Positions 7,146-63,030 of a stretch of DNA of 64,000 nt are shown here, one piece after another. The stretch lies in the NCBI GenBank assembly GCA_003154195.1, contig PMCS01000024.1, positions 28 through 64,027 on the forward strand. The letters run 5' to 3'. Each line of letters opens with the position of its first letter. Positions within the stretch are counted from its first letter, which is position 1. Under the pieces are notes generated by a model that was not told the origin of the DNA, did not search any database, and was given only the letters and a program-made list of their open reading frames with translations. This stretch comes from Candidatus Omnitrophota bacterium. Its GTDB lineage: Bacteria; Omnitrophota; Gorgyraeia; Duberdicusellales; 4484-171. The translations under genes were made by a program, and so were the position numbers.

Positions 7146-7461
7146 GGAAGCTATTTTACAGGAAGTAGTGAAATTTGGGAAGGGAAAAATAAAACCAAAA
7201 GCTTTACCACTAAGTCACTAAAACACGAAGACACGAATAATATAAAAACTCATTTTATATTGTTCATTGACCATTTAACGTTTTAAATTTTTAAAAATGA
7301 TAAATGACCAACGTCCAATGATATTTTTAAAATGAATTTGTTGTTTTTCTTTGTGTACCTTGTGTCTTGGTGGTACGATTTAGGTTTTAATTTTTTAGTT
7401 TTTAAAATCCTTTTCTTTACCTGTGATCATCGGCATCATCTAATCAGCGATCATCCGCGTT

Positions 7462-14283: not shown

Positions 14284-14406
14284 GGCAAGTTGGTTTGGTC
14301 CACAGATTTCTCAGATTTATCGGATTGAAGATTGGATAGATTAATGCAATATTTTAAAAAAATTAATCTTTTTTTTGAATCCGCAGAAATCTGCGTAATC
14401 TGTGGA

Positions 14407-14934
14407 CTAATTGTTTTTTGTTTTTTTAAAGGAATCTATCAGCAGCAATCCTGTTCCGGTGGTAATGCACGAATCCGAAATATTAAACACCGGCCAGACG
14501 CGGAAATCGAAATAATCCACGACGTATCCTAAGGTTATCCGGTCGCATAGGTTGGATATTGCGCCGCCCAGGATCAGGCCGCAGGATACCATAAAAAGGG
14601 CATCGCGCCGCTTTTCGCTTTTCAGGAATAGTAGAAAAAGCAAAATAAAGATAACACCGGTATAAATTAAAAAGTTGGTTTTTCCCGATAGGAGGCTGAA
14701 GGCGGCGCCTTTGTTAAAAACTACGGTTATGTGGAAAATATTTTTTATTACCGGGGTAGAGGTAAACGCGAAGTATTCACGCAGGTAGGTTTTGACAACG
14801 AAGTCTACGACAAAGACAATCGCTGCCGTAAAGAATACCGTTCTATTATTTTTTGCTTTGCTAATTGAACAAAATGAGCTTGCCTCATTTTGTTCAATTA
14901 GACTTTGTTTTCTTTCTCTATCTCTTCCTGGCAT
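14407..14934 (-). CDS. lspA: lipoprotein signal peptidase (signal peptidase II); start codon uncertain
   Basis: NKGAAFS and FNISD/VDYFDF motifs match the LspA family; four TM segments. Confidence 0.75.
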   Translation of the reverse strand: MPGRDRERKQSLIEQNEASSFCSISKAKNNRTVFFTAAIVFVVDFVVKTYLREYFAFTSTPVIKNIFHITVVFNKGAAFSLLSGKTNFLIYTGVIFILLFLLFLKSEKRRDALFMVSCGLILGGAISNLCDRITLGYVVDYFDFRVWPVFNISDSCITTGTGLLLIDSFKKTKNN

Positions 14935-15290: not shown

Positions 15291-15569
15291 TTTTTTGAGC
15301 CTCCTTTAATGAGCAGACGATTTACAAATTTTGGTAAAAATTTGTAAATCGTAGGGCGAAGCCCGTCTGCGAATTAAACCCCGCCCTTTTGGCGTTATCG
15401 ATAAATTAAAACATTCTTTTTAGCAACCGCTTTAACCCCGCTTTTTTACCTAAACACTCAGCCAAAAGGGCGGGGCAATAAAACTTGGCCCGGTTTACCG
15501 GGACTTAGTTTTATTGATCCGACTACCGATTTTTTCTGCGCCCCTTTAGGACTTAGAAAAATCGAAGTC

Positions 15570-18326
15570 TCATTTGACCTCCCTTAAAGCGTCGCTGCAT
15601 CGTTTGCAGACGCCGACAAACTCCTTATCGCGGTCAATATCGTTTTTCCAATTCCAGCAGCGCAGGCATTTTTGCCCCCGCGCTTTTTCTATTCTGATTG
15701 AGGGTTCCCCTTCTTCAATGGTTACCCCGGAAACAATAAATACTTCCCTTAAGGCATCGGCGCAATTCTTATAAAAATCCAGCGGCGCGCCATTAAACTT
15801 TAAAAATACTTCCGCTTCAAGAGAACTTCCGATAACCGCTTTTTCCCGCTGATTTTCTATTTCTTTTAGTACCGGCGGCCGCAATTCGAATATTTTTTTC
15901 CATCGTTCGATTACGCTGTTATCAATCCAGTCCTTCCGGTAATCTTCGTCAATCGTGGTCTTAAAAATCGAATCTTTTTTATTCTTTAAATTATCCCACG
16001 CTAAATACCCTTCTTCGCTCGTGTAGGATAATATCGGCGCCGAAAGTTTCAGAAGTATTTTTAATATCTGAAAAAGAACGAACTGGCAGCTTCTTCTTCC
16101 CTGCGAGTTAGGCGAGAAAGTATATAGCCTATCCTTTAAAATGTCAAGATAAAAAGAACTCAAGGAAAGGTTACAGAAGTTAAAAATCGCTTGCCCCGCT
16201 TTGTAAAAACTGAATTCTTCATAGCAGGAATTAACTTCTTCGACCAGCAGCATTGCCTTAGAAAGCATATATTTATCGACATCGCACAGATCTTTATATT
16301 CAAAATTATTTTTTTCGATATCGAAATCATTGATGTTGCCCATGACAAACCGGATGGTGTTGCGGATCTTCCGGTAGATGTCTACCAGTTGCTTGATGAT
16401 GCCGTCGGAGATCTTCACGTCTTCGCTGTAGTCGCTGGACGCTGCCCAGAGGCGTAAAATTTCCGCACCGTAATTTTTGGATATTTCCTGCGGGGCGATG
16501 ACGTTGCCCATCGATTTCGACATCTTGCGGCCTTCGCCGTCGACGACAAATCCATGGGTAAGGATTATTTTAAACGGGGCCCGCTTTTCGATCGCGACCG
16601 ACGGTATCAGCGACACCTGAAACCAGCCGCGGTGCTGGTCGCTTCCTTCTAAATACATATCCGCGGGAAAATTCAGGCCGGGGTTTTGCTTGACCACCGC
16701 TTCAAAGCTCGCTCCCGATTCGAACCATACATCGAGAATATCGAATTCTTTGGCAAATTCTTTTGCCGCGCATTTCGGGCAGGTTAATTCCGGGGGCAGG
16801 AATTCTTTCAAATCAAGAATAAACCACGAGTCCGAACCTCTTTGCTTAAAGATTTCCGAAGCCTTTTCTAAAACGGCGGAATCAAGAGTCACTTCGCCGC
16901 ACTGTTTGCACTTTAGCGCCGGGATAGGTACACCCCATAGCCTCTGGCGCGATAAACACCAGTCCGGCCTGGTCTCCAGCATCCCGGTCATCCGTTCTTT
17001 GCCCGAACCGGGCACCCATTTGACCTTATTCGTTTCCTCTATCGCCAGTTTACGTAAATCCTTATGGTCGATTTTTAGAAACCACTGGAAAGTCGCGCGA
17101 AAGATTATTGGATTTTTACAGCGCCAGCAATGCGGGTAAGAATGCTGTATTTTTTCCGCTTTTATTAGAGCCTGCTTTGCTTGTAAGGTTTCGATGACGG
17201 CGGTATTGGCGTCTTTGATGTTTTTGCCTTTAAATTCTTCCGGCGTGTCAAAAATGCCTTTTTCGTTGACCGGCATAACCATTGGAAGGTCTTTATACTT
17301 ACGCGTCAGCGAAAAGTCTTCTTCGCCGTGCCCCGGCGCGATATGCACGCAGCCCGAACCGTCTTCGTGTGACACAAAGTCACCCAATAAGACTTTACGT
17401 TCGGTATTATCATTTAAGAAAGGGTGTTGCAGGATTACTCCCTCAAGCTCCCGGCCTTCTATTCCTTGTTTGACTACCGAAATATCCCATCCTAATTTTT
17501 CTTTTAACACCGACAGGCGGTCTTCAGCCAAAATAAAACGTTTTTCACCGACCTGCACGATTGCGTATTTTAACGAAGGATTTACCGCGACCGCGACGTT
17601 AGAGATTAATGTCCACGGTGTAGTCGTCCATACTAAAAAATATGTATTTTTAATGTCGGATATTTTATTTTTGGCGTCCAGGACGGCAAAAATAAAATAT
17701 ATTGAATGAGATTCTTTATCGGCATATTCCACTTCCGCTTCGGCTAAGGCCGTTTCGCAGGCCGCGCACCAGTTTACCGGTTTGCGTCCGCGGTAAATAT
17801 AGCCTTCTTTATTAAGCCGCCCCAGCACCTTCATGATCGAATATTCGTATTCCGGATTTAAGGTTAAATAAGGCGCGGCCCAGTCGCCAAAGACGCCCAG
17901 CTTTTCGAATTCTGCGCTTTGCAGCTTGACGTACTTGAGGGCGAATTTTTTCGCCTGCCGCCGGAAATCGACAATTTCCACGTCATGCTTGGTTTTATTC
18001 AGTTCTTTGAACAGCTGATGTTCTACCGGCAGGCCGTGGCAGTCCCATCCGGGAATATAGGGCGTGTAAAACCCGCGCATCGCTTTATATTTGATAATAA
18101 TGTCTTTGAGGATTTTATTCAGGGCGTGGCCGATATGGATCGAGCCGTTGGCATAAGGCGGCCCGTCGTGGAGTAAAAATTGCGGCGCGTCCTTGCGCTC
18201 CGCGAGGAGGCTTTTATAGATATCGATTTGCTTCCAATGGGCCAATATCCTCGGCTCAAGCTGATTGAGGTTGGCTTTCATGGGGAAGTTGGTTTTGGGT
18301 AGATTCAGGGTAGTTTTATATTCCAT
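15570..18326 (-). CDS. ileS: isoleucine--tRNA ligase
   Basis: HIGH (PYANGSIHIGHA) and KMSKS motifs; C-terminal zinc-finger CxxC...CxxC; 918 aa. Confidence 0.9.
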   Translation of the reverse strand: MEYKTTLNLPKTNFPMKANLNQLEPRILAHWKQIDIYKSLLAERKDAPQFLLHDGPPYANGSIHIGHALNKILKDIIIKYKAMRGFYTPYIPGWDCHGLPVEHQLFKELNKTKHDVEIVDFRRQAKKFALKYVKLQSAEFEKLGVFGDWAAPYLTLNPEYEYSIMKVLGRLNKEGYIYRGRKPVNWCAACETALAEAEVEYADKESHSIYFIFAVLDAKNKISDIKNTYFLVWTTTPWTLISNVAVAVNPSLKYAIVQVGEKRFILAEDRLSVLKEKLGWDISVVKQGIEGRELEGVILQHPFLNDNTERKVLLGDFVSHEDGSGCVHIAPGHGEEDFSLTRKYKDLPMVMPVNEKGIFDTPEEFKGKNIKDANTAVIETLQAKQALIKAEKIQHSYPHCWRCKNPIIFRATFQWFLKIDHKDLRKLAIEETNKVKWVPGSGKERMTGMLETRPDWCLSRQRLWGVPIPALKCKQCGEVTLDSAVLEKASEIFKQRGSDSWFILDLKEFLPPELTCPKCAAKEFAKEFDILDVWFESGASFEAVVKQNPGLNFPADMYLEGSDQHRGWFQVSLIPSVAIEKRAPFKIILTHGFVVDGEGRKMSKSMGNVIAPQEISKNYGAEILRLWAASSDYSEDVKISDGIIKQLVDIYRKIRNTIRFVMGNINDFDIEKNNFEYKDLCDVDKYMLSKAMLLVEEVNSCYEEFSFYKAGQAIFNFCNLSLSSFYLDILKDRLYTFSPNSQGRRSCQFVLFQILKILLKLSAPILSYTSEEGYLAWDNLKNKKDSIFKTTIDEDYRKDWIDNSVIERWKKIFELRPPVLKEIENQREKAVIGSSLEAEVFLKFNGAPLDFYKNCADALREVFIVSGVTIEEGEPSIRIEKARGQKCLRCWNWKNDIDRDKEFVGVCKRCSDALREVK

Positions 18327-18385
18327 ATAATTTTTTACTCCGTAAAAAATTATCCGTCATCCGCTTCGCGTGAGTATTTACGGTA

Positions 18386-20304: not shown

Positions 20305-20490
20305 ACTTAGCTCCTGGGTAATGGTAAGGGTAACGATGCCCGTATAGGCTAAAGACTTGGTCAGGGTAAAGGTAAGGATGCCAGTATAGGTTAGGGTTAA
20401 GGTAAAGGTTTTAAGATTAGTATCAGCCCTAACCCTTGCCGTAACCCAAACTGGCTTCGTTACCCTAGCCCTAGCCTTAACCGATTTTTA
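20305..20490. repeat. about 170-bp imperfect palindromic repeat (GGTAAGG/GGTTAGG-rich arm versus CCCTAACC/CCTTAACC-rich arm), copy 1
   Basis: reverse complement of 20400-20490 matches 33440-33530 almost base for base. Confidence 0.8.
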
Positions 20491-21285: not shown

Positions 21286-21412
21286 ATTTAAGGTGGTGAA
21301 GCCTTATAGTTTTCTGTAATAGTTGGGGCTTCACCCTGAGACAGAAATCATTCATCCACCGCATCACCTTTTGACTACGCGCAGCGCAGGCGTGAATTTC
21401 TGTCGAATGGGT

Positions 21413-21441
21413 AAGATAGCATAAAATATTCGGGGTGTCAA
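21413..21441 (-). promoter_or_regulatory. sigma70-like promoter TTGACA-N17-TATCTT upstream of proC
   Basis: minus strand reads cTTGACAccccgaatattttatgcTATCTTAc; 24 of 31 nt identical to the element at 26026-26054. Confidence 0.45.
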
Positions 21442-21463
21442 GAATTAGCGGGAAAAGAGGGTT

Positions 21464-25881: not shown

Positions 25882-26025
25882 AGCCCCTCCTTGTGCGGTT
25901 TAACCGGAAAACTTTTTATAGTGTTCGAGTATTAATATATAACATGCCAAGTTGTTGGGAACAAGGGGTAGGCATTAGGTAACTGAAAACGATTACAGCT
26001 GCCGGTCAATAAATTCCTTGCTCAT

Positions 26026-26054
26026 AAGATAGTATGAAATATTTGGGGTTCAAG
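26026..26054 (-). promoter_or_regulatory. sigma70-like promoter TTGAAC-N17-TATCTT upstream of the secreted-protein cluster
   Basis: minus strand reads cTTGAACcccaaatatttcatacTATCTTAt; paralogous to the element at 21413-21441. Confidence 0.4.
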
Positions 26055-26090
26055 AATTAGGAGGGTTGATGGAGTATACGAAAAACCAGG

Positions 26091-26591: not shown

Positions 26592-26630
26592 GCAGTAACC
26601 ACGCTAAAAAATTATACTATAAAGATAAAA

Positions 26631-26850
26631 AAATAAAACCTAAACCTACCACTAAAGCACCAAAATAAAAACAAAACCAAAATATTTACCACCAAGGCAC
26701 CAAGAGCACCAAGAAGATTAGTAGTTGCATTCTTTTCTTTGTGCCCTTTGTGGTAAGTTTTAGGTTTTATTTATATTCTATAGTTTTGACCTATAGTTTT
26801 TACTTTATATTTTTGTGTTTTGGTGGTAAATTTTTAAGTTTTTTTTAGTC
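26631..26850. repeat. four copies of the CTTGGTGGTAAAnTTTTGGTTTT intergenic element arranged as two nested inverted pairs
   Basis: reverse-complement-form copies at 26631-26665 and 26668-26718; plus-form copies at 26735-26775 and 26800-26848. Confidence 0.8.
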
Positions 26851-27837
26851 TTAATACTTCGGTTTATTTCGCCCTGATTTTTTGTAACCTTTGGCGAAAG
26901 GTTTTGGCGGCCGGGTGCTTGTTTTGTCCCAGGTTCTGGGTTTTCCTTTGCCTCTTTGGCCAAAGCCTTGTTTTTCCGCCGGTTTTTCCCAGGGACGGGT
27001 TTTGTGGCCGGCTTTTTTCCATGGCCTTGTCTCCTCCCGGTCTTTTACCCATGGCCGGGAACCATCACCGCTCTTTTTCCATAGCGCGGGGTCAGCGTCG
27101 AATTTTTTTCGCGGCCTTATTCCTTGCTCATCTTTTTCCCAAGGCTTAAAGCCGCCGCCGCTTTTCTTTCGCGGTTCAGCCGGAGCAAATTTTTTCCAGG
27201 GTTCGGTTGATTCCTCTTTTTTCCTCCATGGCTTGAAACCGCCGCCGGTTTTTTTCCACGGCGTGGACGCAGCCGTAAATTTTTTCCAAGGCTGAGATTT
27301 CCCTTTATCTTTACCCCAGGAATCGCGCTGCCCATCTTTTTTATGCCCTTGTTTGGGGCGGCCAGAGCTTTTATGGACAGGCGCGTTAGCGCTACCGCCG
27401 GCGCCTGAGGGGCCGCGGCCGTTCCAGGAATTACGCCGTCGCCGGCTGGTGTCCCATTGTTCATCCTTTTTCACCAAAGCCGAATCGCGGGAAAATTTTA
27501 TCCGGCGCGGCTCCGGCGCGGGACGGGAAATATTTTCAATCGGTGCGCTCCACGACAAAAACGCGTCTTTTTTTACGCTCGCGCGAGGTGCTTTAGGCTT
27601 AGACTGCGCTTTAGCCACATTAAGCGGCCGGTCAATAAATTCTTTGCCGTTTAGCGATGCGATTGCGGCGAGAGCCTGCTGATTATCAGGCATGGTAACA
27701 AAGCCAAAACCGCGCGATTTATCCGTATTCTTTTCCGTAACGATTACGGCGGAAGAAACGTCGCCAAAGTTTTCGAAAAGTTGCTTAAGGTCGTCCTTAG
27801 CCGCGCTGAATGATAAATTACCTACAAAAATTTCCAT
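26851..27837 (-). CDS. RRM-domain RNA-binding protein with a long basic PW[KE]K-repeat C-terminal tail
   Basis: N-terminal RNP-type RRM (IFVGNLSF...RGFGFVTM); about 240-aa low-complexity tail with more than 10 PWKK/PWEK repeats; SD AAGGAG. Confidence 0.75.
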   Translation of the reverse strand: MEIFVGNLSFSAAKDDLKQLFENFGDVSSAVIVTEKNTDKSRGFGFVTMPDNQQALAAIASLNGKEFIDRPLNVAKAQSKPKAPRASVKKDAFLSWSAPIENISRPAPEPRRIKFSRDSALVKKDEQWDTSRRRRNSWNGRGPSGAGGSANAPVHKSSGRPKQGHKKDGQRDSWGKDKGKSQPWKKFTAASTPWKKTGGGFKPWRKKEESTEPWKKFAPAEPRKKSGGGFKPWEKDEQGIRPRKKFDADPALWKKSGDGSRPWVKDREETRPWKKAGHKTRPWEKPAEKQGFGQRGKGKPRTWDKTSTRPPKPFAKGYKKSGRNKPKY

Positions 27838-30046: not shown

Positions 30047-30260
30047 TGCTATAATACCTTGTCAGCATATTTATTGAATTATTTTATTTTCATCCGCGAA
30101 ACGGATGTCTTTTATTTTTTACCCATTCGGCAGAAAGCCGCGTCCGTGAGGGCGCGGATGAATGCTTTCTGCCTCAGGGTGAAGCTCCAGGGGAGCTGAA
30201 TCCTGAATAACAAGAAACCACCACCGTAAGGTGGTGGAGCTTCACGAAGTAAAAAATAAT
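30047..30260 (+). promoter_or_regulatory. extended -10 promoter (TGcTATAAT) plus an about 200-nt highly structured leader of the ROK kinase gene (candidate cis-regulatory RNA)
   Basis: TGCTATAAT at 30047-30055; small hairpin plus U-tract at 30100-30130; nested 10-bp stems at 30139-30170 and 30176-30245, the latter with a competing local pairing and overlapping the only GGAG before the ATG. Confidence 0.35.
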
Positions 30261-31586: not shown

Positions 31587-31620
31587 TAATAAGAAAGTAA
31601 AATGAAATACAAAAACTTTT

Positions 31621-31798
31621 GTCCACAGATTGCTCAGATTTTTATGGCTTAAGAAAAAGATTGGGATATTTATAGATATAAAATAATCCCGCCGTATTTT
31701 GGCGGGATTATCCCGGTAGGCCACCGGCGTGAGCCGGTGGTAGTTCACTTTTTAAATCTGTTTAATCCCAATCCTATTAATCTGAGAAATCTGTGGAA
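31621..31798. repeat. inverted pair of GTCCACAGATT-nCnCAGATTT elements flanking two GC-rich hairpins
   Basis: left copy at 31621-31650; right reverse-complement copy at 31755-31798; internal hairpins atcccgccgtattttggcgggat and ccaccggcgtgagccggtgg. Confidence 0.75.
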
Positions 31799-31820
31799 AA
31801 ATTTTTTGGTTGGTTTTTAA

Positions 31821-33349: not shown

Positions 33350-33612
33350 TGGTTAGGGCTATGGCTAGGCTCTCCTTCGCCCTTCGAGCTTTGGAAAAGT
33401 CTCGCCGAAGCCATAGCGAAGGCGGAAAGCCGGTAATAATAATCAGCTAGGGCTAGGGTAACGAAGCCAGTTTGGGTTACGGTAAAGGTTAGGGCTGATA
33501 CTAATCTTAAAACCTTTACCTTTACCTTAACCTATACTGGCATCCTTACCTTTACCCTGACCAAGTCTTTAACCGATACCGGCATCGTTACCCTTACCCT
33601 AGCCGTTTTTAA
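33350..33612. repeat. about 170-bp imperfect palindromic repeat (copy 2, inverted relative to copy 1) plus additional flanking hairpins
   Basis: 33440-33612 matches the reverse complement of 20305-20490. Confidence 0.8.
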
Positions 33613-37397: not shown

Positions 37398-37596
37398 GAT
37401 CCCTCCTGATTTTCTTTGGTTAATACCAAAAACCAAATACTTTTGTCCACAGATTTCAAGGATTTTGTAGAAAAAACATGGCCCAAACCCATTAATTTTT
37501 TATACAATGGCTTGATATATGCTATTTTGACCGGAGTTAATTATACCGCTATCCCCGTTTTCGGCAAGAATAAAGAAAAATTGTTATTTTTATTGG

Positions 37597-38367: not shown

Positions 38368-39581
38368 ATTAAAACCTGAATATAAACCAAAAACCTACCA
38401 CCAAGACACTAAGGCACAAAAAACAAAGACTAAAAATAAATTTTCACCACAGAGAACACAGAGCGCACAGAGAAAACAGAACCAAGAAACTTTTCCCCAC
38501 CCGCTCGCTTCGCTCGCTGGAGAGCACGAAGCCCACGAAGGGAAAACAAATTTTTACCGCAAAGGCGGTGTGTAGCGGAGCGAAGCGTAACCTCCCCAAA
38601 AGGGGACAAAGTGCGCAAGGTAAATAATTAAGTACGTGTCCCCGGAACTTCGAACTTAAAATAAGTTTTAATGGTTTTTCATGGAATCTCTTCCGAATAT
38701 TAAAAAAAAGGGATAGTTAAATTGTCTTGTCAAAATTATGAATTTTCCATCCTGAACGGACGGCCCAGACATTAGTTCAATTTCATCTTTATCTTCGATA
38801 TAATAAAAAGCCATACCGAAGATGTCATTCCTATTGGCAAGTTCTTCGGGTATAGGAATTTTTATTTTTATTATATCGTCAGCATATCCGGATTGGCTTG
38901 TGTCTTTACTTATGGGGGAAACTTTAATTACACTGACTTTTCCCCCGTAAGTAACTTTAACTTTAGGATGCTCGAAATAAGCCGCCGCTACGCTTACACT
39001 TATTTTTTGTTCTGTTTTTAATGCATTTTGAGGAAATTCTATTTCTACGCCGTCAAGAGGGTAGTCGGAATTCGGAACAGTTATGAGACCGCCTTTAGGG
39101 CCTATTGTTTGTGAGCATATTTCAACAAAATTAGATTCATACGTTATAATTTTAGCTTGAGCGCAAAATGTTGATCCGGGAAGCATTAATGTAATAAGCC
39201 CAAGATAAAAGATATTAAGGAATTTTTTCACGAAAACATCCTTTTTTATTTTCCTCTGACAAAAAAATCATACGACAATCCTATTTTTTAATATTAGTTG
39301 AAAGTCTTTAGCGGCCGGGGTGTCTTCTAGTTAATAATAACGCGAAAAAGTATTTGTCTTTATCTTTGGAAATCTGCGTAATCTGTGGACAAAAATATTT
39401 TGTATTTCTTTGTACCTTAGCAGTCAGAAATCATTCTTCCAGTTTTTTCATTCCTCTTCCTTATCTCTTGTTTTTTGCTCTTTTTCTTTTGGTATCTCTC
39501 TGCGAACTCTGTGCGCTCTGTGGTGAAAATTTTATTTTTTGTGCCTTGGTAGTAAATTTTTTGGTTTATCTTCTTTTGTTT
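38368..39581. mobile_element. 1.2-kb cassette with about 100-bp imperfect terminal inverted repeats inserted between pdxA and rsmA/ksgA (MITE-like; carries one secreted-protein gene)
   Basis: left inverted repeat 38372-38492 and right inverted repeat 39460-39581 are reverse complements (shared ...attttcaccacagag...cgcacagag... and ttaccaccaaggcacaaaaaa cores); both abut the flanking genes directly. Confidence 0.55.
38668..39231 (-). CDS. hypothetical secreted protein (cassette passenger gene)
   Basis: N-terminal signal peptide MKKFLNIFYLGLITLMLPGSTFCAQA; no recognisable domain. Confidence 0.5.
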   Translation of the reverse strand: MKKFLNIFYLGLITLMLPGSTFCAQAKIITYESNFVEICSQTIGPKGGLITVPNSDYPLDGVEIEFPQNALKTEQKISVSVAAAYFEHPKVKVTYGGKVSVIKVSPISKDTSQSGYADDIIKIKIPIPEELANRNDIFGMAFYYIEDKDEIELMSGPSVQDGKFIILTRQFNYPFFLIFGRDSMKNH

Positions 39582-42192: not shown

Positions 42193-42214
42193 GTTGTATA
42201 TTTTTTTAGCACAG

Positions 42215-42390
42215 ATGATCGCTGATTAGAAGATGCAGATTACCGCAGACAGGAACCAAATTAGAATACTCCGCAAATTTTAATTAAGCAAAATTAGTGA
42301 GTATTATAAAGACGAATAGCTTGCAACCGGTTCTTCTAATCTATCATCGCCAATCTTTTTATCAGCGGCCATCAGCATCTTCTAATCAGC
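42215..42390. repeat. inverted pair of GATGATCGCTGATTAGA(A/T)GATGCAGAT elements (family C)
   Basis: 42222-42238 cgctgattagaagatgc and 42368-42384 gcatcttctaatcagcg form a perfect 17-bp inverted repeat; homologous copies at 7421-7465 and 54640-54790. Confidence 0.8.
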
Positions 42391-42394
42391 GATT

Positions 42395-46770: not shown

Positions 46771-46925
46771 TACATATCTCCTTTTTATTTGAACCGCAAA
46801 AAAACCGCCGAATTTATTCGGCGGATTGCCTGCCGGTAAGGCAGGCATGCGGGGCAAATAATCCCGCCGCATTTTGGCGGGATTATTTGGGTGAAGCCAC
46901 CGGCGAAGTCGCCGTTGATACACTA
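46771..46925. repeat. cluster of four GC-rich hairpins (REP-like), including an ATAATCCCGCCGcATTTTGGCGGGATTAT unit shared with 31681-31712
   Basis: hairpins ccgccgaatttattcggcgg, gcctgccggtaaggcaggc, atcccgccgcattttggcgggat and cggcgaagtcgccg. Confidence 0.7.
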
Positions 46926-47158: not shown

Positions 47159-47210
47159 GTTTTTCCTCCTTAGCTGAATTCCAGTATATAAAACTAAAAC
47201 AAAAAACTTA

Positions 47211-47338
47211 GTCCACAGATCTCTCAGATTTATTCGGATCCAAAAATTAGTAGATAAATAAAAAAATAAAAGAACTATTTTTCTTACATTTGCTTTATCA
47301 TTTCCGGAAATCCATGAAAATCTGCGTAATCTGTGGAC
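47211..47338. repeat. inverted pair of GTCCACAGATT-nCnCAGATTT elements upstream of rpsP
   Basis: 47211-47241 gtccacagatctctcagatttattcggatcc; 47304-47338 is its reverse complement. Confidence 0.8.
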
Positions 47339-47346
47339 AAAAAGTT

Positions 47347-48819
47347 TTAACCCTGCGCGTATTGCAGCGCTAAAATCTGCGCCCGGGCTTTGTTGACAGT
47401 TTCTTTATATTCTTTTTCGGGGCGGGAATCGTTGACAATGCCCGCTCCGGCCTGGATATAAGCTTTACCATTATTAAAAAGAATAGTGCGAATTATTATA
47501 CACGTATCCATGCTGTTTGTGAAGGAAAAATATCCAATACTGCCTCCGTACAGGCCGCGCGCTTGCGGTTCGATATCGTTGATAATCTGCATTGCCCGCA
47601 CTTTCGGCGCGCCGCTTAACGTCCCGGCGGGAAAACAACTTATGAAGGCGGAAAAAATATCTTTGTTTTTAGCTAATTTTGCCCGCACTTCGCTTACGAT
47701 ATGCATGACATGCGAAAATCGTTCGACATATTTAAACCGCGGCGCAATGACTGTAGCTTTTTCCGCCACCCGGCCGAGGTCGTTGCGCGCCAGGTCTACC
47801 AGCATGATGTGTTCGGCAATTTCCTTGGTGTCGGTGAGTAAATCCTTTTCCAGGGCAATATCTTCGGCTTCGTTAGCCCCGCGGGGACGCGTGCCGGCAA
47901 TGGGATGAGTAACCAGTTCATTCTTTTCGCAGCGCAGGAGCATTTCCGGCGAAGACCCGGCCACGGTTACGCCTTTAAAATCAAGGAAAAACATATAAGG
48001 CGAAGGGTTCAGGATACGCAGGTACCGGTATACTTCGAACGGTTCGGCGTCAAAATCAGCGCTGAATTGCTGGGAAGGCACCGCCTGGATAATATCGCCG
48101 CGCCGGATGTGGCTTTTTATTTTTTCGACGGCGCGCATAAATTCTTTCTTACGGAAATTAGAACGGATGCCGATTTTTTTTAAACAAAACTTAAGCGGCG
48201 GCAATCCCGGCGATGCAGCAATATCTTCGAACAGTTTTATCAGATTTTGTTTTTCTCGCGCGTAGATTCTCCTGATATTTTTCTTTTCCCCGATCGCCGC
48301 AAAGGAAAGTATCTCGATCTGACGCTTGACATGGTCGAAAATAATGAGAAATTTCGGCAGGATGAAATAAGTATCCGCCAGGCCGGCTTTATCCGGTAGC
48401 TCTTTTCCGATCGGTTCATAAAAACGCGCGATATCATATCCGGCATACCCCACAAACCCGCCAAAAAACCGCAAGTTTTCCAGCGGCGCCACGCTGAAAC
48501 GCGACATTAGTTCTTTTAATTCATAGATAGGATCTTGGGCGGTCTGGAAAATACGCGTATGCACGCCGGATAAATTAATCGTCCGGCCTTTACTGCGAAA
48601 AGTCTGGAGCGGCGAGAATCCCAGAAACGAAAAGCGAGAAACCTTTTCTTCCCCCTCTACCGACTCCAAAAGAAAACTTTCGCCCTTAAAACGTTTACGC
48701 AGCCGCGCGTAAATCGACACCGGCGTCAACCAATCGCAGTAGAATTTATGCGACAGGACGATCAGGTTATGCTTTTTGGCTAGTTTTATAAATTGGTTTA
48801 TGTTGGGATTAATGTCCAT
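47347..48819 (-). CDS. chorismate-binding enzyme, anthranilate synthase / aminodeoxychorismate synthase component I family
   Basis: TrpE/PabB C-terminal catalytic domain motifs (GAGIV, PKVRAMQII). Confidence 0.7.
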   Translation of the reverse strand: MDINPNINQFIKLAKKHNLIVLSHKFYCDWLTPVSIYARLRKRFKGESFLLESVEGEEKVSRFSFLGFSPLQTFRSKGRTINLSGVHTRIFQTAQDPIYELKELMSRFSVAPLENLRFFGGFVGYAGYDIARFYEPIGKELPDKAGLADTYFILPKFLIIFDHVKRQIEILSFAAIGEKKNIRRIYAREKQNLIKLFEDIAASPGLPPLKFCLKKIGIRSNFRKKEFMRAVEKIKSHIRRGDIIQAVPSQQFSADFDAEPFEVYRYLRILNPSPYMFFLDFKGVTVAGSSPEMLLRCEKNELVTHPIAGTRPRGANEAEDIALEKDLLTDTKEIAEHIMLVDLARNDLGRVAEKATVIAPRFKYVERFSHVMHIVSEVRAKLAKNKDIFSAFISCFPAGTLSGAPKVRAMQIINDIEPQARGLYGGSIGYFSFTNSMDTCIIIRTILFNNGKAYIQAGAGIVNDSRPEKEYKETVNKARAQILALQYAQG

Positions 48820-49292: not shown

Positions 49293-50135
49293 TTATATCC
49301 TAACCCCTATTCCCTTTTTAGCCAGATAGTCTTTTATTTCTCTGATTTTAATTTCCCGGTAATGGAATATTGAAGCCGCCAGGGCCGCCGTAGCTTTTGT
49401 CTCGGTGAAAACATCGTAAAAATCAACGATGCTCCCCGCGCCGCCGGAAGCAATCACGGGGATTTTTACCGCGTTCGAAACCGCTCCGGTAAGGCCAATA
49501 TCAAAACCATTTTTTGTGCCGTCGGAATCCATACTGGTCAAAAGTATTTCTCCCGCTCCCAGCTTTTCCGCTTTCTTCGCCCACTCGACCACGTCGATCC
49601 CCGTAGGGGTTCTGCCGCCGTTGACATAAACTTCCCATTTGTCAGAAGACGCTATGGGTGATTGATGAAGGATGATGGATGAGGGATGATAAAAATATTT
49701 TTTTCGTCCTTCGTCCTTCATCCTTCGTCCTTCGCGCTTCTTCGCGTCGATTGCTACTACGATACACTGGCTGCCGAAAATCCTGCTTGCCTGAGTAATC
49801 AATCCGGGGTGATTTACCGCGGCGGTATTAATCGACACCTTATCGGCGCCGGCAATCAGTAATTGGCGTATATCCCCGGCGGTACGTACGCCGCCGCCTA
49901 CGGTAAACGGCATAAATACTACGTTGGCAACCTTTTTTACCAATTCCACGGTTGTGGCGCGCCGCTCGTGGCTGGCGGTGATATCCAGAAAAACCAGTTC
50001 ATCCGCTCCCTCTTTTTCATAAATCAGGGCGTTTTCCACCGCGTCGCCGGCGTCGCGCAGGTTAACAAAATTAACCCCTTTTACGACTCGGCCATTATTG
50101 ATATCTAGGCAGGGAATAATCCGCTTTGCCAACAT
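49293..50135 (-). CDS. hisF: imidazole glycerol phosphate synthase cyclase subunit, with an about 28-aa in-frame palindromic insertion
   Basis: HisF (beta/alpha)8 motifs ([31 protein letters not shown]); the extra segment [28 protein letters not shown] is encoded by the dyad-symmetric stretch 49655-49745. Confidence 0.8.
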
Positions 50136-51282: not shown

Positions 51283-51335
51283 TGAATTTCTTTGTGACTT
51301 AGTGCCTTGGTGGTAAAGTTTTTGGTTTTTACCTT
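51283..51335 (+). repeat. solo copy of the CTTGGTGGTAAAgTTTTTGGTTTT element ending at the TPR-gene start codon
   Basis: tttctttgtgacttagtgccttggtggtaaagtttttggtttttacc. Confidence 0.75.
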
Positions 51336-54632: not shown

Positions 54633-54639
54633 TCCGTTC

Positions 54640-54790
54640 GCCGCAGATAATCGCTGATTAGATGATGCAGATGATCACCGATAAATACTATAAACCTCGA
54701 TAAAAAACGGAAATCGTAATTTATTATTTTGAATTTAAACGTTATATTAATATCTGTGATCATCTGCTTCTTCTCATCAGCGATCATCGG
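54640..54790. repeat. inverted pair of family-C elements (ATCGCTGATTAGATGATGCAGATGATCAC and its reverse complement)
   Basis: 54648-54680 and 54750-54790 are reverse-complementary; related to 7421-7465 and 42215-42390. Confidence 0.8.
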
Positions 54791-55298
54791 CGCCGGCGAG
54801 CCAAATCTTGCGCATTTCTTCGGTTATTTCCTGTTGTAAAGGATAGCTTATCTCTTTTTCGTTGCCGTTGCCGACAATATTTTTATTTTTAACGGCGTCT
54901 TCCTTAAGAAATTCTTTTATGTGCGCGCAGGGCACGCCATTAGTTTTGGCATAATCGCGGATGCTGCGGTCATCGGTTACGACAATTGCTTCGGAGGCAG
55001 CGCATGGTTTTTTAGTAGTCTTTATCTGGTAAACAATATTTTTTATGATATCGTCCGCGCTTTTATCGGAACTGAAAAGTACCTGGAATTGCGACTCTTT
55101 TTTTACCTCGGGATTAAAATTTCCGTCAAAAACTATAATCGCTTTATTATTTTTACTTCCCGTAAGGGAATAGCGGTGTATATAATTTATCAGGTCGGTA
55201 TGGATGGAACTCGAATTATTAAGCTGGGGGATTTTGTGGGCCAGATTGAAAGCATCGATTATATAGACCAACATAGGTAATTCCTCCCAGGATACCAA
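54777..55298 (-). CDS. NYN-domain (YacP/Rae1-like) putative ribonuclease
   Basis: LVYIIDAFNL ... IIVFDGN ... AIVVTDD pattern of PIN-like NYN domains. Confidence 0.45.
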   Translation of the reverse strand: MVSWEELPMLVYIIDAFNLAHKIPQLNNSSSIHTDLINYIHRYSLTGSKNNKAIIVFDGNFNPEVKKESQFQVLFSSDKSADDIIKNIVYQIKTTKKPCAASEAIVVTDDRSIRDYAKTNGVPCAHIKEFLKEDAVKNKNIVGNGNEKEISYPLQQEITEEMRKIWLAGADDR

Positions 55299-56184
55299 GG
55301 CTTATGAGAAAAACTAAATTTATTAAAGATAAATTGAGCCCGATTGCCTTATTGATCCCTACCAGGGAAAAAAAATAAACCGCCGCGCCTTCGCGTAATC
55401 CCGCTCCGGCAATCGTGATCGGGACAAGAGCAATCGACATGATGATCGGCACAAGGATCAAAAAATAAAAAATGCTTACGTTTATGTTAAAAGCTTTTGA
55501 GCAGACGAAGAACCCGAAGGAACTGAAAAACTGGACCAAAAACGAAAAAATCATCGTCGTTAAAAATGCTTTCGGATTCTTTTTAAAAAAATATAACTGG
55601 TCATGGAAATCGACGATCTTAACCCGCAACGGCGAGCCTTCCTTCAGTACGCCGACACAAAACGTGAATACTTTTTTGCTGAAAATCAGAAGCGCGGCGC
55701 AAAAATAAATCGAAAACATGATGAGCAGGGAAACGAAAATCTGCGGCTGGGGGAAAAGTTTTCTTCCCAGCAGGTAAAAAAATACCGCCAAGATGATTAA
55801 CGCCATTCCCCCGCTGAAGCGATCCATCACGACGCTTGCCGCAACTTTTTTTGCGTTACCGTAATGGCCGGTTATGCTTACCGCCCGGAAAACATCGCCG
55901 GCGACGAAGGAGGGAAAAAAAAGATTGAGAAAATAACTGGAAGTATAAACGCCGAAAAGGGCGCACGCGGTAACGTTTATACCGACGGCAGCCAGGACGT
56001 ATTTCCAGCGCAACGCGCAGATAACAAAGGTCAGGTAAAACACCCCCAGTCCCAACAAGATGTAAATTTTATGAGAATTTCGATAAACTGCGGCTAAATC
56101 TTTATAGGGAACAAATTTAAACAGCGCGAAGATCAACCCGGCCGTCGCCAGAAGCTTTAAGACGTAGGAGAGTTTATTTTTCAT
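55219..56184 (-). CDS. polytopic membrane protein, lysylphosphatidylglycerol-synthase-TM / flippase-like (UPF0104) family
   Basis: about 8 TM helices; N-terminal pattern typical of the family. Confidence 0.45.
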   Translation of the reverse strand: MKNKLSYVLKLLATAGLIFALFKFVPYKDLAAVYRNSHKIYILLGLGVFYLTFVICALRWKYVLAAVGINVTACALFGVYTSSYFLNLFFPSFVAGDVFRAVSITGHYGNAKKVAASVVMDRFSGGMALIILAVFFYLLGRKLFPQPQIFVSLLIMFSIYFCAALLIFSKKVFTFCVGVLKEGSPLRVKIVDFHDQLYFFKKNPKAFLTTMIFSFLVQFFSSFGFFVCSKAFNINVSIFYFLILVPIIMSIALVPITIAGAGLREGAAVYFFSLVGINKAIGLNLSLINLVFLISLGILGGITYVGLYNRCFQSGPQNPPA

Positions 56185-56204: not shown

Positions 56205-56375
56205 CGAAAATAAATTAAGGAAATTGGGGTATCGGAAAATCATGATTTGGTGATTTGGGTATTGGGATACTCGGCCATCGGTTATCGCCTCTTTGCCGTT
56301 TCCCCTAATTTCCCAGTCTCCCAATCCCCGAATCCTGATCCCCTAATCCCCTGATATCCCAATTTAAAATTACCC
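56205..56375. repeat. 165-bp internally palindromic repeat (GGGATA/TTGGG-rich arm versus TATCCC/CCCAA-rich arm), copy 1, immediately 3' of trxB
   Basis: direct repeat of 57306-57480 (about 85% identity). Confidence 0.8.
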
Positions 56376-57305
56376 TTAAACACTAATATAGCCGCCCTTC
56401 AGATATTTATAGGCGCTTAGCGCGGCAACCGCGCCCTCGGCGGCGGCGGTGATCAATTGCCGCAATGGCCGTTTTCGGCAATCGCCGCAGGCCCAGATAA
56501 ACGGCTGCGATGTAGTCAAATATTCATCAGTGACGATAAATCCCCCTTCGTCCAGATTCACACAATCCCTAAAGACTTCCGTAGCGGGCTTTACACCGAC
56601 CGCGACAAATAAGCCTTGGACATCGCGGGTATGGGTTTCTTTTGTCTTTAAGTTTTCAACAATAAGGCGTTGGAGCGATTGTTCCCCTTTTAATTCCCTG
56701 ATCGCGCTGTCGTAAATGACCTCGATGTTATTTTTTCCCGATACTTCTTTTCGCAGGTATTCCATGGCCCGGAAGCTGTTCCGGCGGTGGATAAGATAAA
56801 CCTTACGGCAAATACTTGCCAGGTACAAGGCTTCTTCGAGGGCAGTGTTGCCTCCGCCGGCCACAGCGACATCTTTATTCTTAAAGAAAAACCCGTCGCA
56901 TACCGCGCAGTAAGAAACGCCCTTGCCGAGAAATTCTTCCTCGCCCGGGGCGCCGAGTTTTTTGAATGAAGCGCCGGTAGCGAGGATCGCGCTTTTAGCG
57001 CGGTAGGTTGTGTTTTCCGAGTGAAGGGCCAGCGCTTTATCTTCGACGCGAACCTTAGTGATTTCTTCCTGTGTAATTTCGATATCCAGGTCCTGCAAAG
57101 TTTTTGCCAATTCGGCGGCAAGTTCCCGGCCTTTTGTCCCTAATTTTGTCCCGATGTAATTATCGACGGTTTCCATGAAGAAAAGCTGCCCGCCCACGCC
57201 TTTTGATTCGAAAAGAATAAAATCAAGACCGGAGCGTTTAGCGTAAACCGCCGCGCTTATTCCGGCTATCCCTCCTCCGATAATCGCAAGGTCTGTATTT
57301 GTCAT
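56376..57305 (-). CDS. trxB: thioredoxin-disulfide reductase
   Basis: FAD motif GGGIAGISAA, redox-active CAVCDG and NADPH motif GGGNTALEEA. Confidence 0.85.
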   Translation of the reverse strand: MTNTDLAIIGGGIAGISAAVYAKRSGLDFILFESKGVGGQLFFMETVDNYIGTKLGTKGRELAAELAKTLQDLDIEITQEEITKVRVEDKALALHSENTTYRAKSAILATGASFKKLGAPGEEEFLGKGVSYCAVCDGFFFKNKDVAVAGGGNTALEEALYLASICRKVYLIHRRNSFRAMEYLRKEVSGKNNIEVIYDSAIRELKGEQSLQRLIVENLKTKETHTRDVQGLFVAVGVKPATEVFRDCVNLDEGGFIVTDEYLTTSQPFIWACGDCRKRPLRQLITAAAEGAVAALSAYKYLKGGYISV

Positions 57306-57480
57306 AATGATTTTTAATTAAGGAGATTGGGGTATTGGGAAATTAGGATTTGGATATTAGGATACTGGGATATTTGCCTATCGGTTATCGCCTCTTTGCC
57401 GATCCCCCTAATTCCCTAATTTCCCAATCCCCAAATCCCGATATCCTGATCCCCTGATATCCTAAAAGGAGATCCCGATA
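57306..57480. repeat. 165-bp internally palindromic repeat, copy 2, immediately 5' of trxB
   Basis: aattaaggagattggggtattggg...gatatcctgatcccctgatatcc. Confidence 0.8.
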
Positions 57481-57517: not shown

Positions 57518-57760
57518 TTAGTTCTTGGTTGTTTTTATAAAATATTCGACGGAACGGTCGTAAGTTTTTTCTGCTTGCGGCGTAAAAAAGCAACCGGGTA
57601 GTTCGCCGCTGCGGCGATGATATTCAACGCACTGGCAGCATACACCTTTACGGGGACATGGACTATAGGTACATGTGCAGTTTTTTATATTCTGCGGTTT
57701 ATTAAGGCAAGCCATTTTATCCCGCACCCTATCAGGAAAACCGCCGGCTTCCGTCGACAA
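57518..57760 (-). CDS. small Cys-rich hypothetical protein (9 Cys in 80 aa)
   Basis: CTCTYSPCPRKGVCCQCVEYH pattern. Confidence 0.4.
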   Translation of the reverse strand: MSTEAGGFPDRVRDKMACLNKPQNIKNCTCTYSPCPRKGVCCQCVEYHRRSGELPGCFFTPQAEKTYDRSVEYFIKTTKN

Positions 57761-58841: not shown

Positions 58842-59921
58842 TTACTTATTAATTAACGCGTGCGTCAACGACGCAATCATCAGTTCTTCATCGGTAGGGA
58901 CAACCATGACTTTGGTTTTGGGCGCTATTTTACGTATATCTTTTTTAAATCGCTGGATCAGCCAGGGATTATTCTCCCCCACCCCGGCAGTAAAGCAAAC
59001 CGCGTCCGCTCCACCTAAGATAAGAAGATACGCTCCGATGTATTTTTTTATGCGGTATACATACATATCGATCGCGAGTTTCGCTCTAATATTACCGTTG
59101 GCCATTTCTTTGGTTATGGCGCGCACATCATTACTTACCCCTGATATGGCCAACAAACCGCTTTTACGATTGAGAATCTCATCCATCTGGCTTACGGATA
59201 ATTTATTCTTTTCCATGATGTGGAATACCGCCGCGGGATCGATATCGCCGCAGCGCGTCCCCATAATCAGCCCTTCCAGGGGCGTAAAACCCATTGAGGT
59301 GTCGATAGATTTTCCTTTATTGACCGCGGCAATACTGCAGCCATTTCCCAGGTGGCAGGTAATAATTTTAAGTTTATTCAAAGGTTTTTTGAGCCGTCTG
59401 GCCGCGGCATGCGCGACAAATTGGTGTGAAGTTCCATGGAAACCATACTTGCGGATACAATATTCCTGGTAATATTTCAGCGGTATCGCGTAAAGATAAG
59501 CATACTCCGGGATATTGTGGTGGAATGCCGTGTCGAAAATCGCAACCTGGGGCGTATTGGGCAAAGCTTCTTTGCAGGCGACGATCCCCGCTAAATTTGC
59601 GGGGTTATGCAGCGGCGCCAGATCCGAACATTCTTTGATCTTAGCAATGACCTCATCGTCGATCAAGTGAGGTTTTCTAAAGAATTCCGCTCCGTGCACG
59701 ACGCGATGGCCGATGGCGGAAATTTCCTGCAGGCTTAGAATTATTTTTTCGTTGACCAGCCGGAAAAGTAATTCGTTTATGCCGTCTCGGTGGTTGGCGA
59801 TGGGAGAATCTTTTTCGCCGATTTTTTCGATGACGCCTTTAAAAATAAATTTTTCCCTGGGGAATTCGTAGATTTTATATTTTATCGAGGAACTGCCGCA
59901 GTTGATGACTAATATTTTCAT
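58842..59921 (-). CDS. ackA: acetate/propionate kinase
   Basis: N-terminus MKILVINCGSSSIKY and acetokinase family motifs. Confidence 0.8.
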   Translation of the reverse strand: MKILVINCGSSSIKYKIYEFPREKFIFKGVIEKIGEKDSPIANHRDGINELLFRLVNEKIILSLQEISAIGHRVVHGAEFFRKPHLIDDEVIAKIKECSDLAPLHNPANLAGIVACKEALPNTPQVAIFDTAFHHNIPEYAYLYAIPLKYYQEYCIRKYGFHGTSHQFVAHAAARRLKKPLNKLKIITCHLGNGCSIAAVNKGKSIDTSMGFTPLEGLIMGTRCGDIDPAAVFHIMEKNKLSVSQMDEILNRKSGLLAISGVSNDVRAITKEMANGNIRAKLAIDMYVYRIKKYIGAYLLILGGADAVCFTAGVGENNPWLIQRFKKDIRKIAPKTKVMVVPTDEELMIASLTHALINK

Positions 59922-60016
59922 ATATTTTTTTACTCCGTAAAAAAAATATCCATATCCGCTTCGCGGATAAGAATTAAACTTTTAAAAATTTACATCTTTG
60001 AGGTAAAAAACAAAGT

Positions 60017-62472: not shown

Positions 62473-63030
62473 TGGAGCCCCACGGGATTACCCGTGGTAC
62501 CTCTAAATGCGCCCCCGTGGGGCGACGTCCCGTTCCGCTTTCCTGCCTCGCCGATGGCTCGGCAAGGCGGGCATCCCCCGCCTACCGGCGGGGGATGCCC
62601 GCTACGGGATAATAATTATTTTCCCCGCAAAGTTTCGCGGGGAAAATAATTATACCGCAAAAAACAAACCGCGCAAGATATAGATTAACTTTTGACAAAA
62701 TTGAAACTGTACCCTTGCGCTATGTTTTTACCCCTTCGCTATCGCTTCAGGGGTTCACCGCCTCCCGGGATAATTATATCAAGGAAGCGGGATCCCGCCG
62801 AATCCGACGAAGTCGGATGCAGGCGGGAAATTCGACTACCGCCTCACCATTCGCCCCCGCCATCCCATAGATGGCGAGGTCTCGTCAATTCGTTTAACGA
62901 ATTGACGGACTTCGCGCTTTGGCTCGGCGAAGTCTCATTATAAAAACATGGGGAATCCCGGTAACAATTTTTTGCCAAAGAGCGGTTTACCGTATTGCCG
63001 GGATTCCCCCACCGGCAGGGAGACTTCAAG

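Follow-up and report, generated by a model that had tools for sequence, protein, structure and literature searches.

Palindromic repeats flanking trxB in an uncultured Omnitrophota bacterium belong to a class of long hairpins present across a 64-kb window

We analyzed a 64,000-nucleotide (nt) stretch of DNA from an uncultured Omnitrophota bacterium (contig PMCS01000024.1; hereafter the window), in which trxB, the gene for a thioredoxin reductase, is bracketed by two similar noncoding repeats, designated copy A (3′ of the gene) and copy B (5′ of it). These repeats belong to a class of long imperfect hairpins that is found across the whole window, and comparison with related genomes indicates that both are insertions, with one shared origin. 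[quoted passage not shown] The consequences for trxB would be minor, since the gene is intact and merely carries two hitch-hiking hairpins.

Results

Two hairpin-forming direct repeats abut trxB

Copy A (56205..56375, with a core at 56213-56362) lies in the interval from the stop codon of trxB (56376-56378) to where the LPG-synthase gene begins (56184), and copy B (57306..57480, with a core at 57316-57465) in that between the stop codon of a DUF6485 gene (57518-57520) and the ATG of trxB (57303-57305). Here and below, palindromes are given without a strand. The two cores are in the same orientation and align over 150 nt without a single gap, with 124/150 identical positions (83%), the 26 mismatches dividing into 19 transitions and 7 transversions. 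In a profile built from both sequences, the homology reaches over 56205-56375 and 57308-57478, and the outer arm of copy B contains 1-2 additional units and reaches to about 57497. The first base of copy A is the base following the trxB stop codon, and it ends 28 nt before the LPG-synthase ATG; the homology core of copy B ends 10 nt before the trxB ATG. The preliminary description of this region, which placed two repeats of the same orientation immediately 3′ and 5′ of trxB, is thus borne out.

As for the gene in between, its identification as a thioredoxin reductase is equally sound. It encodes an intact protein of 309 residues (56376..57305, minus strand) with a Pfam Pyr_redox_2 match (E=2e-51). 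Its best homologues are 65% identical, and the named matches lower in the list (59-62% identical) are thioredoxin-disulfide reductases of Candidatus Omnitrophota. The N and C termini of TrxB agree with those of its homologues, and the termini of the DUF6485 protein are likewise unchanged: the insertions left the flanking genes intact.

On the sense (minus) strand, each copy is composed of about eight GGGGAUY(A) units, followed by a center of 20-30 nt and then by a C-rich arm of complementary units, the arms being about 65 nt long. Units in the G-rich arm include GGGGAUUA, GGGGAUCA, GGGAUUU, and GGGAAAUUA. Tandem Repeats Finder (TRF) reports 6.8 copies of TCCCCTAA at 56301-56352 in copy A and 8-nt units at 57406-57462 in copy B; over the family, the units are 6-9 nt long, with 67-78% of positions matching. 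The element as a whole is an imperfect palindrome, and copy A ends in ATTAAGG...CCCTTAA, which provides the terminal inverted repeats expected of a MITE.

Both copies fold, from either strand, into the long imperfect hairpin that had been predicted for each of them, with energies of -56 to -64 kcal/mol and z-scores of -2.6 to -4.2 relative to dinucleotide shuffles. The trxB cistron therefore has hairpins on either side at the DNA level, and its RNA would have them at both ends if the operon is read through. A conserved center had also been pointed out. An identical stretch does exist, which at 22 nt is the longest perfectly shared by the two copies, but it is not statistically remarkable, since 27% of the simulations that distribute 26 mismatches over 150 sites contain 22 or more consecutive matches (P=0.27). 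A 12-codon open reading frame (ORF) in the center was discarded because, on inspection, it is found in copy A only, where ATG stands in place of ATA.

The source of the window is a clonal population of an uncultured Omnitrophota bacterium from Stordalen Mire, represented by GCA_003154645.1 together with several ENA, JGI, and Logan assemblies. Apart from 0-2 single-nucleotide polymorphisms, the repeats that flank trxB are identical in about 10 independent assemblies, which shows that copies A and B are real sequence and not an assembly artifact; with so few differences, these assemblies are uninformative on variation within the population. Apparent indels of 75-210 nt in WOOD18 scaffolds (L005 4160-4282 and 7675-7885; L004 5919-5920) are artifacts of N-gap scaffolding rather than polymorphisms, and were set aside.

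Both copies are absent from the trxB locus of related genomes

The genes around trxB form a row on the minus strand which reads, in the sense direction, ackA, panD, def, DUF6485 (57518..57760), copy B, trxB, copy A, LPG_synthase_TM (55219..56184, assigned by domain scan, with conserved synteny in relatives), a YacP-like gene, and a gene with a metallo-beta-lactamase fold. The order pta-ackA-panD-def-DUF6485-trxB-LPG synthase is kept in five Omnitrophota genomes, whose TrxB proteins are 61-65% identical to that of the window. In four of these five genomes, the stop codon of DUF6485 overlaps the ATG of trxB by 4 nt, and the distance from trxB to the LPG-synthase gene in the five is 50, 15, 30, 8, and -8 nt. 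The corresponding gaps in the window measure 212 nt (DUF6485-trxB) and 191 nt (trxB-LPG synthase). Comparison of the trxB flanks in relatives, a check proposed in the preliminary description, thus finds trxB at the same position in all five genomes, each time without the repeats. Given the tight packing of these loci, both copies are lineage-specific insertions, and their alignment to each other shows one shared origin. The contrast extends beyond trxB, since long inverted repeats occur at 2.5 per 10 kb in the window vs. 0-1 per 20 kb in the relatives. Because the relatives are both compact and hairpin-poor, we conclude that, in this lineage, the hairpins invaded a gene row that was ancestrally compact and in part translationally coupled.

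These comparisons bear directly on the proposal that the direct repeats are substrates for homologous or site-specific recombination, by which trxB would be excised or amplified in the manner of an attC-bounded integron cassette. Direct orientation around a single gene is what such a cassette would show, each repeat is an imperfect hairpin within the size range of attC sites, and two short contigs break at the elements. The latter, population contigs L074 and L078, begin (both at position 1) inside or at the edge of the elements that flank trxB, from which we conclude that assemblies break at repeats. However, the copies are only 83% identical, and the 22 nt of their longest perfect run do not exceed the minimum that RecA-dependent recombination needs to be efficient. 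Twenty population contigs include the LPG-synthase gene, and none of the 10 places shown for them has a deletion junction: upstream of the gene, nine have trxB and copy A, and at the tenth there is a break, contig L078 beginning at the edge of copy A. Furthermore, trxB is ancestral at its position in related genomes and was therefore not brought in as a cassette, the gene order around it being conserved housekeeping synteny in five genomes rather than variable cassette content. No attC-like core sites (GTTRRRY / RYYYAAC) were noticed at the ends of the elements by eye, no pattern search having been run, and there is no integrase among the approximately 38 window ORFs that were scanned. In view of the conserved synteny and of the absence of core sites and integrase within these scopes, we rejected the integron-cassette reading, and we regard excision or amplification of trxB through its repeats as highly improbable.

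The trxB repeats are part of a window-wide class of hairpins

Folding of every intergenic gap reveals a long imperfect hairpin in many of them. A local-alignment scan of the 64 kb finds about 16 long inverted repeats with a span of 80 nt or more, in a total of about 38 intergenic gaps, and most of these repeats score far above composition-preserving shuffles. When compared all-against-all, they fall into at least seven sequence-unrelated families of two to five copies each, in both orientations, plus several singletons. The ACCACCAAGGCACC and TGTCCACAGATT families are each present in five gaps and the GATGATCGCTGATTAGA family in three, while the TTTAGCCACGGAT, GGTAAGG, TGTAATCATGTGGTT, and trxB families each occupy two. 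In nearly all of these hairpins, the arms are degenerate tandem arrays with a period of 6-9 nt (TRF), the unit being specific to the family.

The GGTAAGG palindromes, to which the trxB repeats had been likened in design though not in sequence, are indeed built in the same way. One copy (20323..20475) lies between PNP_UDP_1 and proC-like genes, and the other (33446..33598), which is 95% identical and inverted relative to the first, between a CHAD-domain gene and ppk. The ACCACCAAGGCACC family is represented by a palindrome at 26604..26838, with related arms at 7185-7394, 38381-38444, 39487-39567, and 51288-51331; the TGTCCACAGATT family by one at 14295..14410, with related copies at 31594-31811, 37428-37466, 39367-39418, and 47189-47348; and the GATGATCGCTGATTAGA family by one at 54639..54795, with related copies at 7416-7459 and 42210-42394. 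The genes next to hairpins are housekeeping genes with little in common: they comprise aroA, lspA, proC, ppk, ppx, mfd, rpsP, trpE, ksgA, pdxA, and tRNA-Glu, as well as genes for a pseudouridine synthase, a pfkB kinase, a phosphorylase, a deaminase, an RRM protein, an ABC-F ATPase, and a ROK kinase.

The notion of a cassette specific to trxB is not upheld by this distribution, since the same design recurs in about 16 other gaps beside unrelated genes. The preliminary description had itself named repeats around many unrelated genes as the mark of generic elements, and at the level of the class this is what is found. Nor is trxB the sole gene to be bracketed by arms of one family. Inverted arms of the same family (38432-38473 / 39497-39538) enclose an ORF (38668-39231) that lies between pdxA and ksgA and matches no Pfam family; arms of a second family (37428-37465 / 39370-39407) enclose ksgA plus this ORF. 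Copies of the same family tend to be close together, as illustrated by the pair around this ORF and by the trxB pair, which is 1.1 kb apart, and this proximity favors some process of copying and insertion.

One further palindrome of this build is located within a gene. It consists of heptamers (ATGGATG x5.3 / TTCGTCC x4.6), spans 49654..49734 inside hisF (49293-50135, minus strand), and is contained in an in-frame insertion of 29 codons (87 nt, 29 residues) that a homologue with 66% identity lacks. The reading frame stays open, and such an insertion is in keeping with selfish behavior of the elements.

Two further observations concern hairpins of this class. A 328-residue protein encoded at 26851-27837, with an N-terminal RRM_1 domain, has hairpin elements on both sides of its gene and is a conceivable RNA-binding partner, although nothing links the two. 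In addition, a short GC hairpin, AAATAATCCCGCCGnATTTTGGCGGGATTAT, which looks like a bidirectional terminator, occurs twice with 97% identity (31681-31711 and 46856-46888), and one of the two copies lies between convergent genes, within the loop of a long hairpin of the TGTCCACAGATT family.

Copying between loci and growth in place

The favored explanation can be stated as a series of events. Many families of this kind, each arm in the trxB case being an array of about eight degenerate 7-9-nt units, GGGGAUY(A) in the first arm and the complementary unit in the second, would have spread into the gene junctions of this Omnitrophota lineage. One copy would have landed between the ancestrally overlapping DUF6485 and trxB genes, and a sister copy between trxB and the LPG-synthase gene, at a distance of 1.1 kb, in a local copy-and-insert event after which the two would have drifted to 83% identity.

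Several findings weigh against this reading. There is no target-site duplication at the borders of copies A and B or of the GGTAAGG pair, where duplications of 2-3 nt are unresolvable in the AT-rich flanks, and no transposase among the ORFs scanned. The presence of many families with few copies each would be unusual for MITEs driven by a transposase. Moreover, a profile of copies A and B identifies no third copy of the trxB family in the approximately 67 kb of source-genome sequence readable for copy searches or in the 95 kb from related genomes, so that the family numbers two copies in 67 kb, both at trxB, and a family restricted to this locus is conceivable. Broader searches do not add to this count, since the collections lacked the source genome and therefore do not give the copy number of the family: a 20-mer of the conserved center had five matches in genome_contigs and an 18-mer had 49 in metagenome_contigs, all of them fortuitous and located in coding sequences of unrelated taxa. 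Finally, the co-transcription and ribonuclease processing discussed below are steps that we infer.

Also on this side is a gap between NTP-transferase and nitroreductase genes in two other Omnitrophota (L067 5874-6042 vs. L069 2118-2211). The orthologous gaps have the same outer ends (AAATTCCAAATC / GGAATTTAT), which are better conserved than the flanking coding DNA (~74%), while the interior is a long hairpin with arms of TTCCAAAT units in L067 only and a short GC hairpin in L069. The difference may represent growth of the arms in place rather than an insertion. Such growth, in which a seed hairpin is lengthened by slippage of 7-9-nt units in one arm and the change is mirrored in the other by intrastrand template switching, offers a general alternative for the origin of these elements, the likeness of the trxB pair being then due to local duplication or gene conversion rather than to transposition. 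Template switching in quasipalindromes is an established mechanism that mirrors changes between arms (PMC7202029). Growth in place would be in keeping with arms that are all made of degenerate tandem units, each family having its own; with the existence of many families and several singletons without target-site duplications or, in the scanned ORFs, a transposase; and with the hisF palindrome, whose two arms are unequal (92% unit matches in one vs. 76% in the other).

Three observations nevertheless make us consider growth in place rather unlikely as the explanation of the trxB repeats. First, the trxB junctions of the relatives have no spacer from which growth could have been seeded, and with no ancestral spacer, an insertion is required there. 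Second, full-length copies that align without gaps are found at different loci, with identities of 83% for the trxB pair and 95% for the GGTAAGG pair, and a copy-and-insert step is therefore needed anyway. Third, the complementarity of the arms within an element (~73%) is lower than the identity between copies (83%), which argues that arms have not been homogenized since the copies split.

We think that both processes, copy-and-insert and growth in place, are at work. A more far-reaching possibility, which we entertain only tentatively and rate as doubtful, is that this lineage makes palindromic families de novo, junction hairpins growing by slippage and template switching before being copied nearby and occasionally into genes. 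If so, its genome would harbor dozens of sequence-unrelated, low-copy families with a single architecture, one would be witnessing the live birth of REP/MITE-like elements, and the trxB pair would be a young local duplication.

Possible effects of the hairpins on the trxB transcript

Copies A and B are probably co-transcribed with their neighbors, as we infer from their position in a formerly compact, same-strand row and from the absence of promoter or terminator consensus in the elements: neither copy contains a sigma-70-like promoter or a site that resembles an intrinsic (Rho-independent) terminator. At gathering threshold, Rfam yields only one tRNA in the whole window and no family in either copy; in the trxB region, its hits are limited to sub-threshold plant microRNA precursors (21-23 bits vs. 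thresholds of 63-120). Readings of the repeats as terminators or as members of an Rfam family were consequently dropped.

According to the favored explanation, the elements would be transcribed along with the gene row and would act only as intercistronic RNA hairpins, not serving trxB specifically. They would abolish the translational coupling between DUF6485 and trxB, and trxB would initiate from an AU-rich, unstructured leader of 10 nt. If they behave like Correia, ERIC, and REP elements, the hairpins could offer entry points for RNase III or RNase E, or protect 3′ ends, and thereby change the stability of segments of the mRNA.

It might be argued instead that the repeats have been selected as a cis-regulatory structure of trxB and the genes around it, in which a switch between hairpin and G-quadruplex, a terminator-antiterminator, or an element affecting stability would tune the expression of a redox gene. 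Canonical G-quadruplex motifs (G3+N1-7) number only three on both strands of the whole window, and two of them are in these copies, both in the 5′ arm of the sense strand (56302..56329 in copy A and 57414..57439 in copy B, minus strand). The G-rich arm of the trxB copies could thus alternatively form an RNA G-quadruplex, a potential confined to this family. In addition, trxB has no Shine-Dalgarno sequence at its ATG, from which the hairpin ends 10 nt away, and the placement of the arms is that described for the heptamers of Xanthomonas and Nostoc, G-rich after a stop codon and C-rich before a start codon (PMC4692102). Against regulation stands the absence of the elements from the five related trxB loci. 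There is no sign of covariation, with 0-1 compensatory changes between copies A and B (two sequences being too few for a covariation test), and no strand bias in stability, since the differences between sense and antisense folding energies of 17 elements go in both directions. Promoter and terminator consensus sequences are lacking, as noted, and families of the same design without G-runs are found beside unrelated genes. Rehm et al. were likewise unable to assign a regulatory role to their repeats (PMC4692102). We therefore judge a dedicated regulatory function in trxB expression to be distinctly improbable. No evidence of selection was found, whether in the folding energies, in the 19 transitions vs. 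7 transversions between the copies, or in the complementarity of the arms (~73%, below the 83% identity between copies), and the structure of the two copies looks, from their sequences, like the product of neutral decay after insertion rather than of maintenance.

Comparison with known repeat systems

In the literature that could be searched, nothing relevant was found on hairpin, palindromic, or inverted repeats in Omnitrophota. The closest described analogue of the trxB repeats comes from Xanthomonas, in the form of GGGNATC heptamer repeats that are paired in inverted orientation. Rehm et al. (2015) reported heptamer repeats (GGGAATC in Xanthomonas and GGGGA(C/T)T in Nostoc/Anabaena) in intergenic regions between aligned ORFs, which are G-rich on the coding strand up to 50 nt after a stop codon and G-rich on the noncoding strand just before a start codon; in Xanthomonas, 70-75 cases per genome are convergent pairs able to form stem-loops, and no function is known (PMC4692102). 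The units are of nearly the same type, GGGGAUY(A) here vs. GGGNATC or GGGGAYT, and in both systems they form tandem arrays in noncoding DNA between ORFs of the same direction, with at least four G-tracts that confer the potential (as a motif in the sequence) to form G-quadruplexes. The trxB repeats also follow the placement rule, the G-rich arm being 0-50 nt after a stop on the coding strand and the C-rich arm preceding the next start by 10-28 nt. However, the heptamers of Rehm et al. are near-perfect simple sequence repeats, in contrast to the trxB units, which are degenerate and variable in length (6-9 nt, 67-78% matches). What appears to be new here, in a different phylum, is the combination of these degenerate, variable units with the copying of whole 150-nt elements between loci without gaps, with many sister families in the same genome that are not G-rich, and with one coding insertion reminiscent of Rickettsia palindromic elements (RPEs).

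The elements resemble hairpin MITEs such as the Correia/NEMIS elements of Neisseria, ERIC of enterobacteria, RUP, and BOX in being noncoding sequences of 100-200 nt, present in multiple copies and both orientations, and inserted at gene junctions inside operons. Co-transcribed Correia hairpins are cut by RNase III and ERIC by RNase E, while RPEs insert in frame (PMC10969869). Unlike these MITEs, the elements described here have no target-site duplication and no related insertion sequence or transposase in the scanned ORFs, fall into numerous small families rather than a single abundant one, and have arms composed of short tandem units.

As for REP sequences and REPINs, which are mobilized by REP-associated tyrosine transposases (RAYTs), they are extragenic palindromes, often in the form of inverted dimers that make larger hairpins, located mainly between same-direction or convergent ORFs and inserted without target-site duplication (PMC3733652). 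The trxB elements share the extragenic, palindromic character, the position between ORFs of one direction, and the lack of target-site duplication. They differ in size and in motif, since REPs are 20-40 nt long and bear an unpaired GTAG or CGTC tag at one end (PMC3733652), while the trxB arms measure ~65 nt, and inspection by eye, with no motif search run, showed no such tag at the ends or center of copies A and B. Nor was a gene for a RAYT noticed among the scanned ORFs of the window. A REP-like structure, unlike the repeats of the window, was noted in one relative (L065 100-1545), where GC-rich hairpins preceded by GTAG (TGTAGGGGTCGACCCC...) form a tandem array with a period of ~210 bp.

The RPEs offer a parallel of another kind, since several palindromic families of ~100-150 nt coexist in one Rickettsia genome, some of whose members lie in frame in housekeeping genes, as does the hisF palindrome. 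RPEs encode a conserved peptide and have no short tandem units; they bear no sequence relationship to the trxB copies, which are intergenic. Lastly, several different 7-nt units (STRR; TAACTGA) are found in intergenic DNA, near start codons, in cyanobacteria, Beggiatoaceae, and Bacteroidetes (PMC4679880). While the amplification of different heptamers in intergenic DNA is a shared feature, those repeats are almost always direct arrays, not palindromes, as exemplified by the BOGUAY genome with 169 direct sets vs. one indirect (PMC4679880).

The wider interest of these elements lies in their density and position. About 40% of the gene junctions of this lineage are filled with long hairpins made of family-specific 7-9-nt units, an ancestral translational coupling was apparently broken by insertions, and one further palindrome occupies the in-frame insertion in hisF. 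The lineage would thus be a natural system in which to study how palindromic repeats originate and spread without an obvious transposase, and how a genome of small size copes with large RNA structures between its cistrons. A practical warning also follows: in such genomes, direct repeats that bracket a gene should not be taken for cassettes.

Other features of the window

Several features of the window are distinct from the unit-built hairpins. A leader motif, TTTTTTACGGAGTAAAAAA(T)TAT-ATG, is found with 88% identity before an ileS-like gene (18321-18370) and before ackA (59916-59965), and contains a small AU hairpin whose loop presents the ribosome-binding site GGAG. A gap of 279 nt (15291-15569), situated downstream of the ileS-like gene, folds with -100 kcal/mol into several perfect stems and has no Rfam match. 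A cluster of GC-rich, near-perfect hairpins at 62473-62691 and 62874-62915, in a gap with 57% GC, likewise matches no Rfam family; its first part reaches -116 kcal/mol for 219 nt, and the cluster is unlike the AT-rich, unit-built hairpins elsewhere. Two short motifs, each in two copies that are 89-91% identical (21324-21357 / 30156-30189 and 21412-21448 / 26025-26060), occur in otherwise unrelated upstream regions; they are not hairpin elements and may be regulatory sites. Finally, an ORF of 1763 residues with no Pfam match (7462-12753) contains an internal tandem duplication of 336 nt (7978-8277 / 8314-8613), the two halves of which are 87-89% identical.

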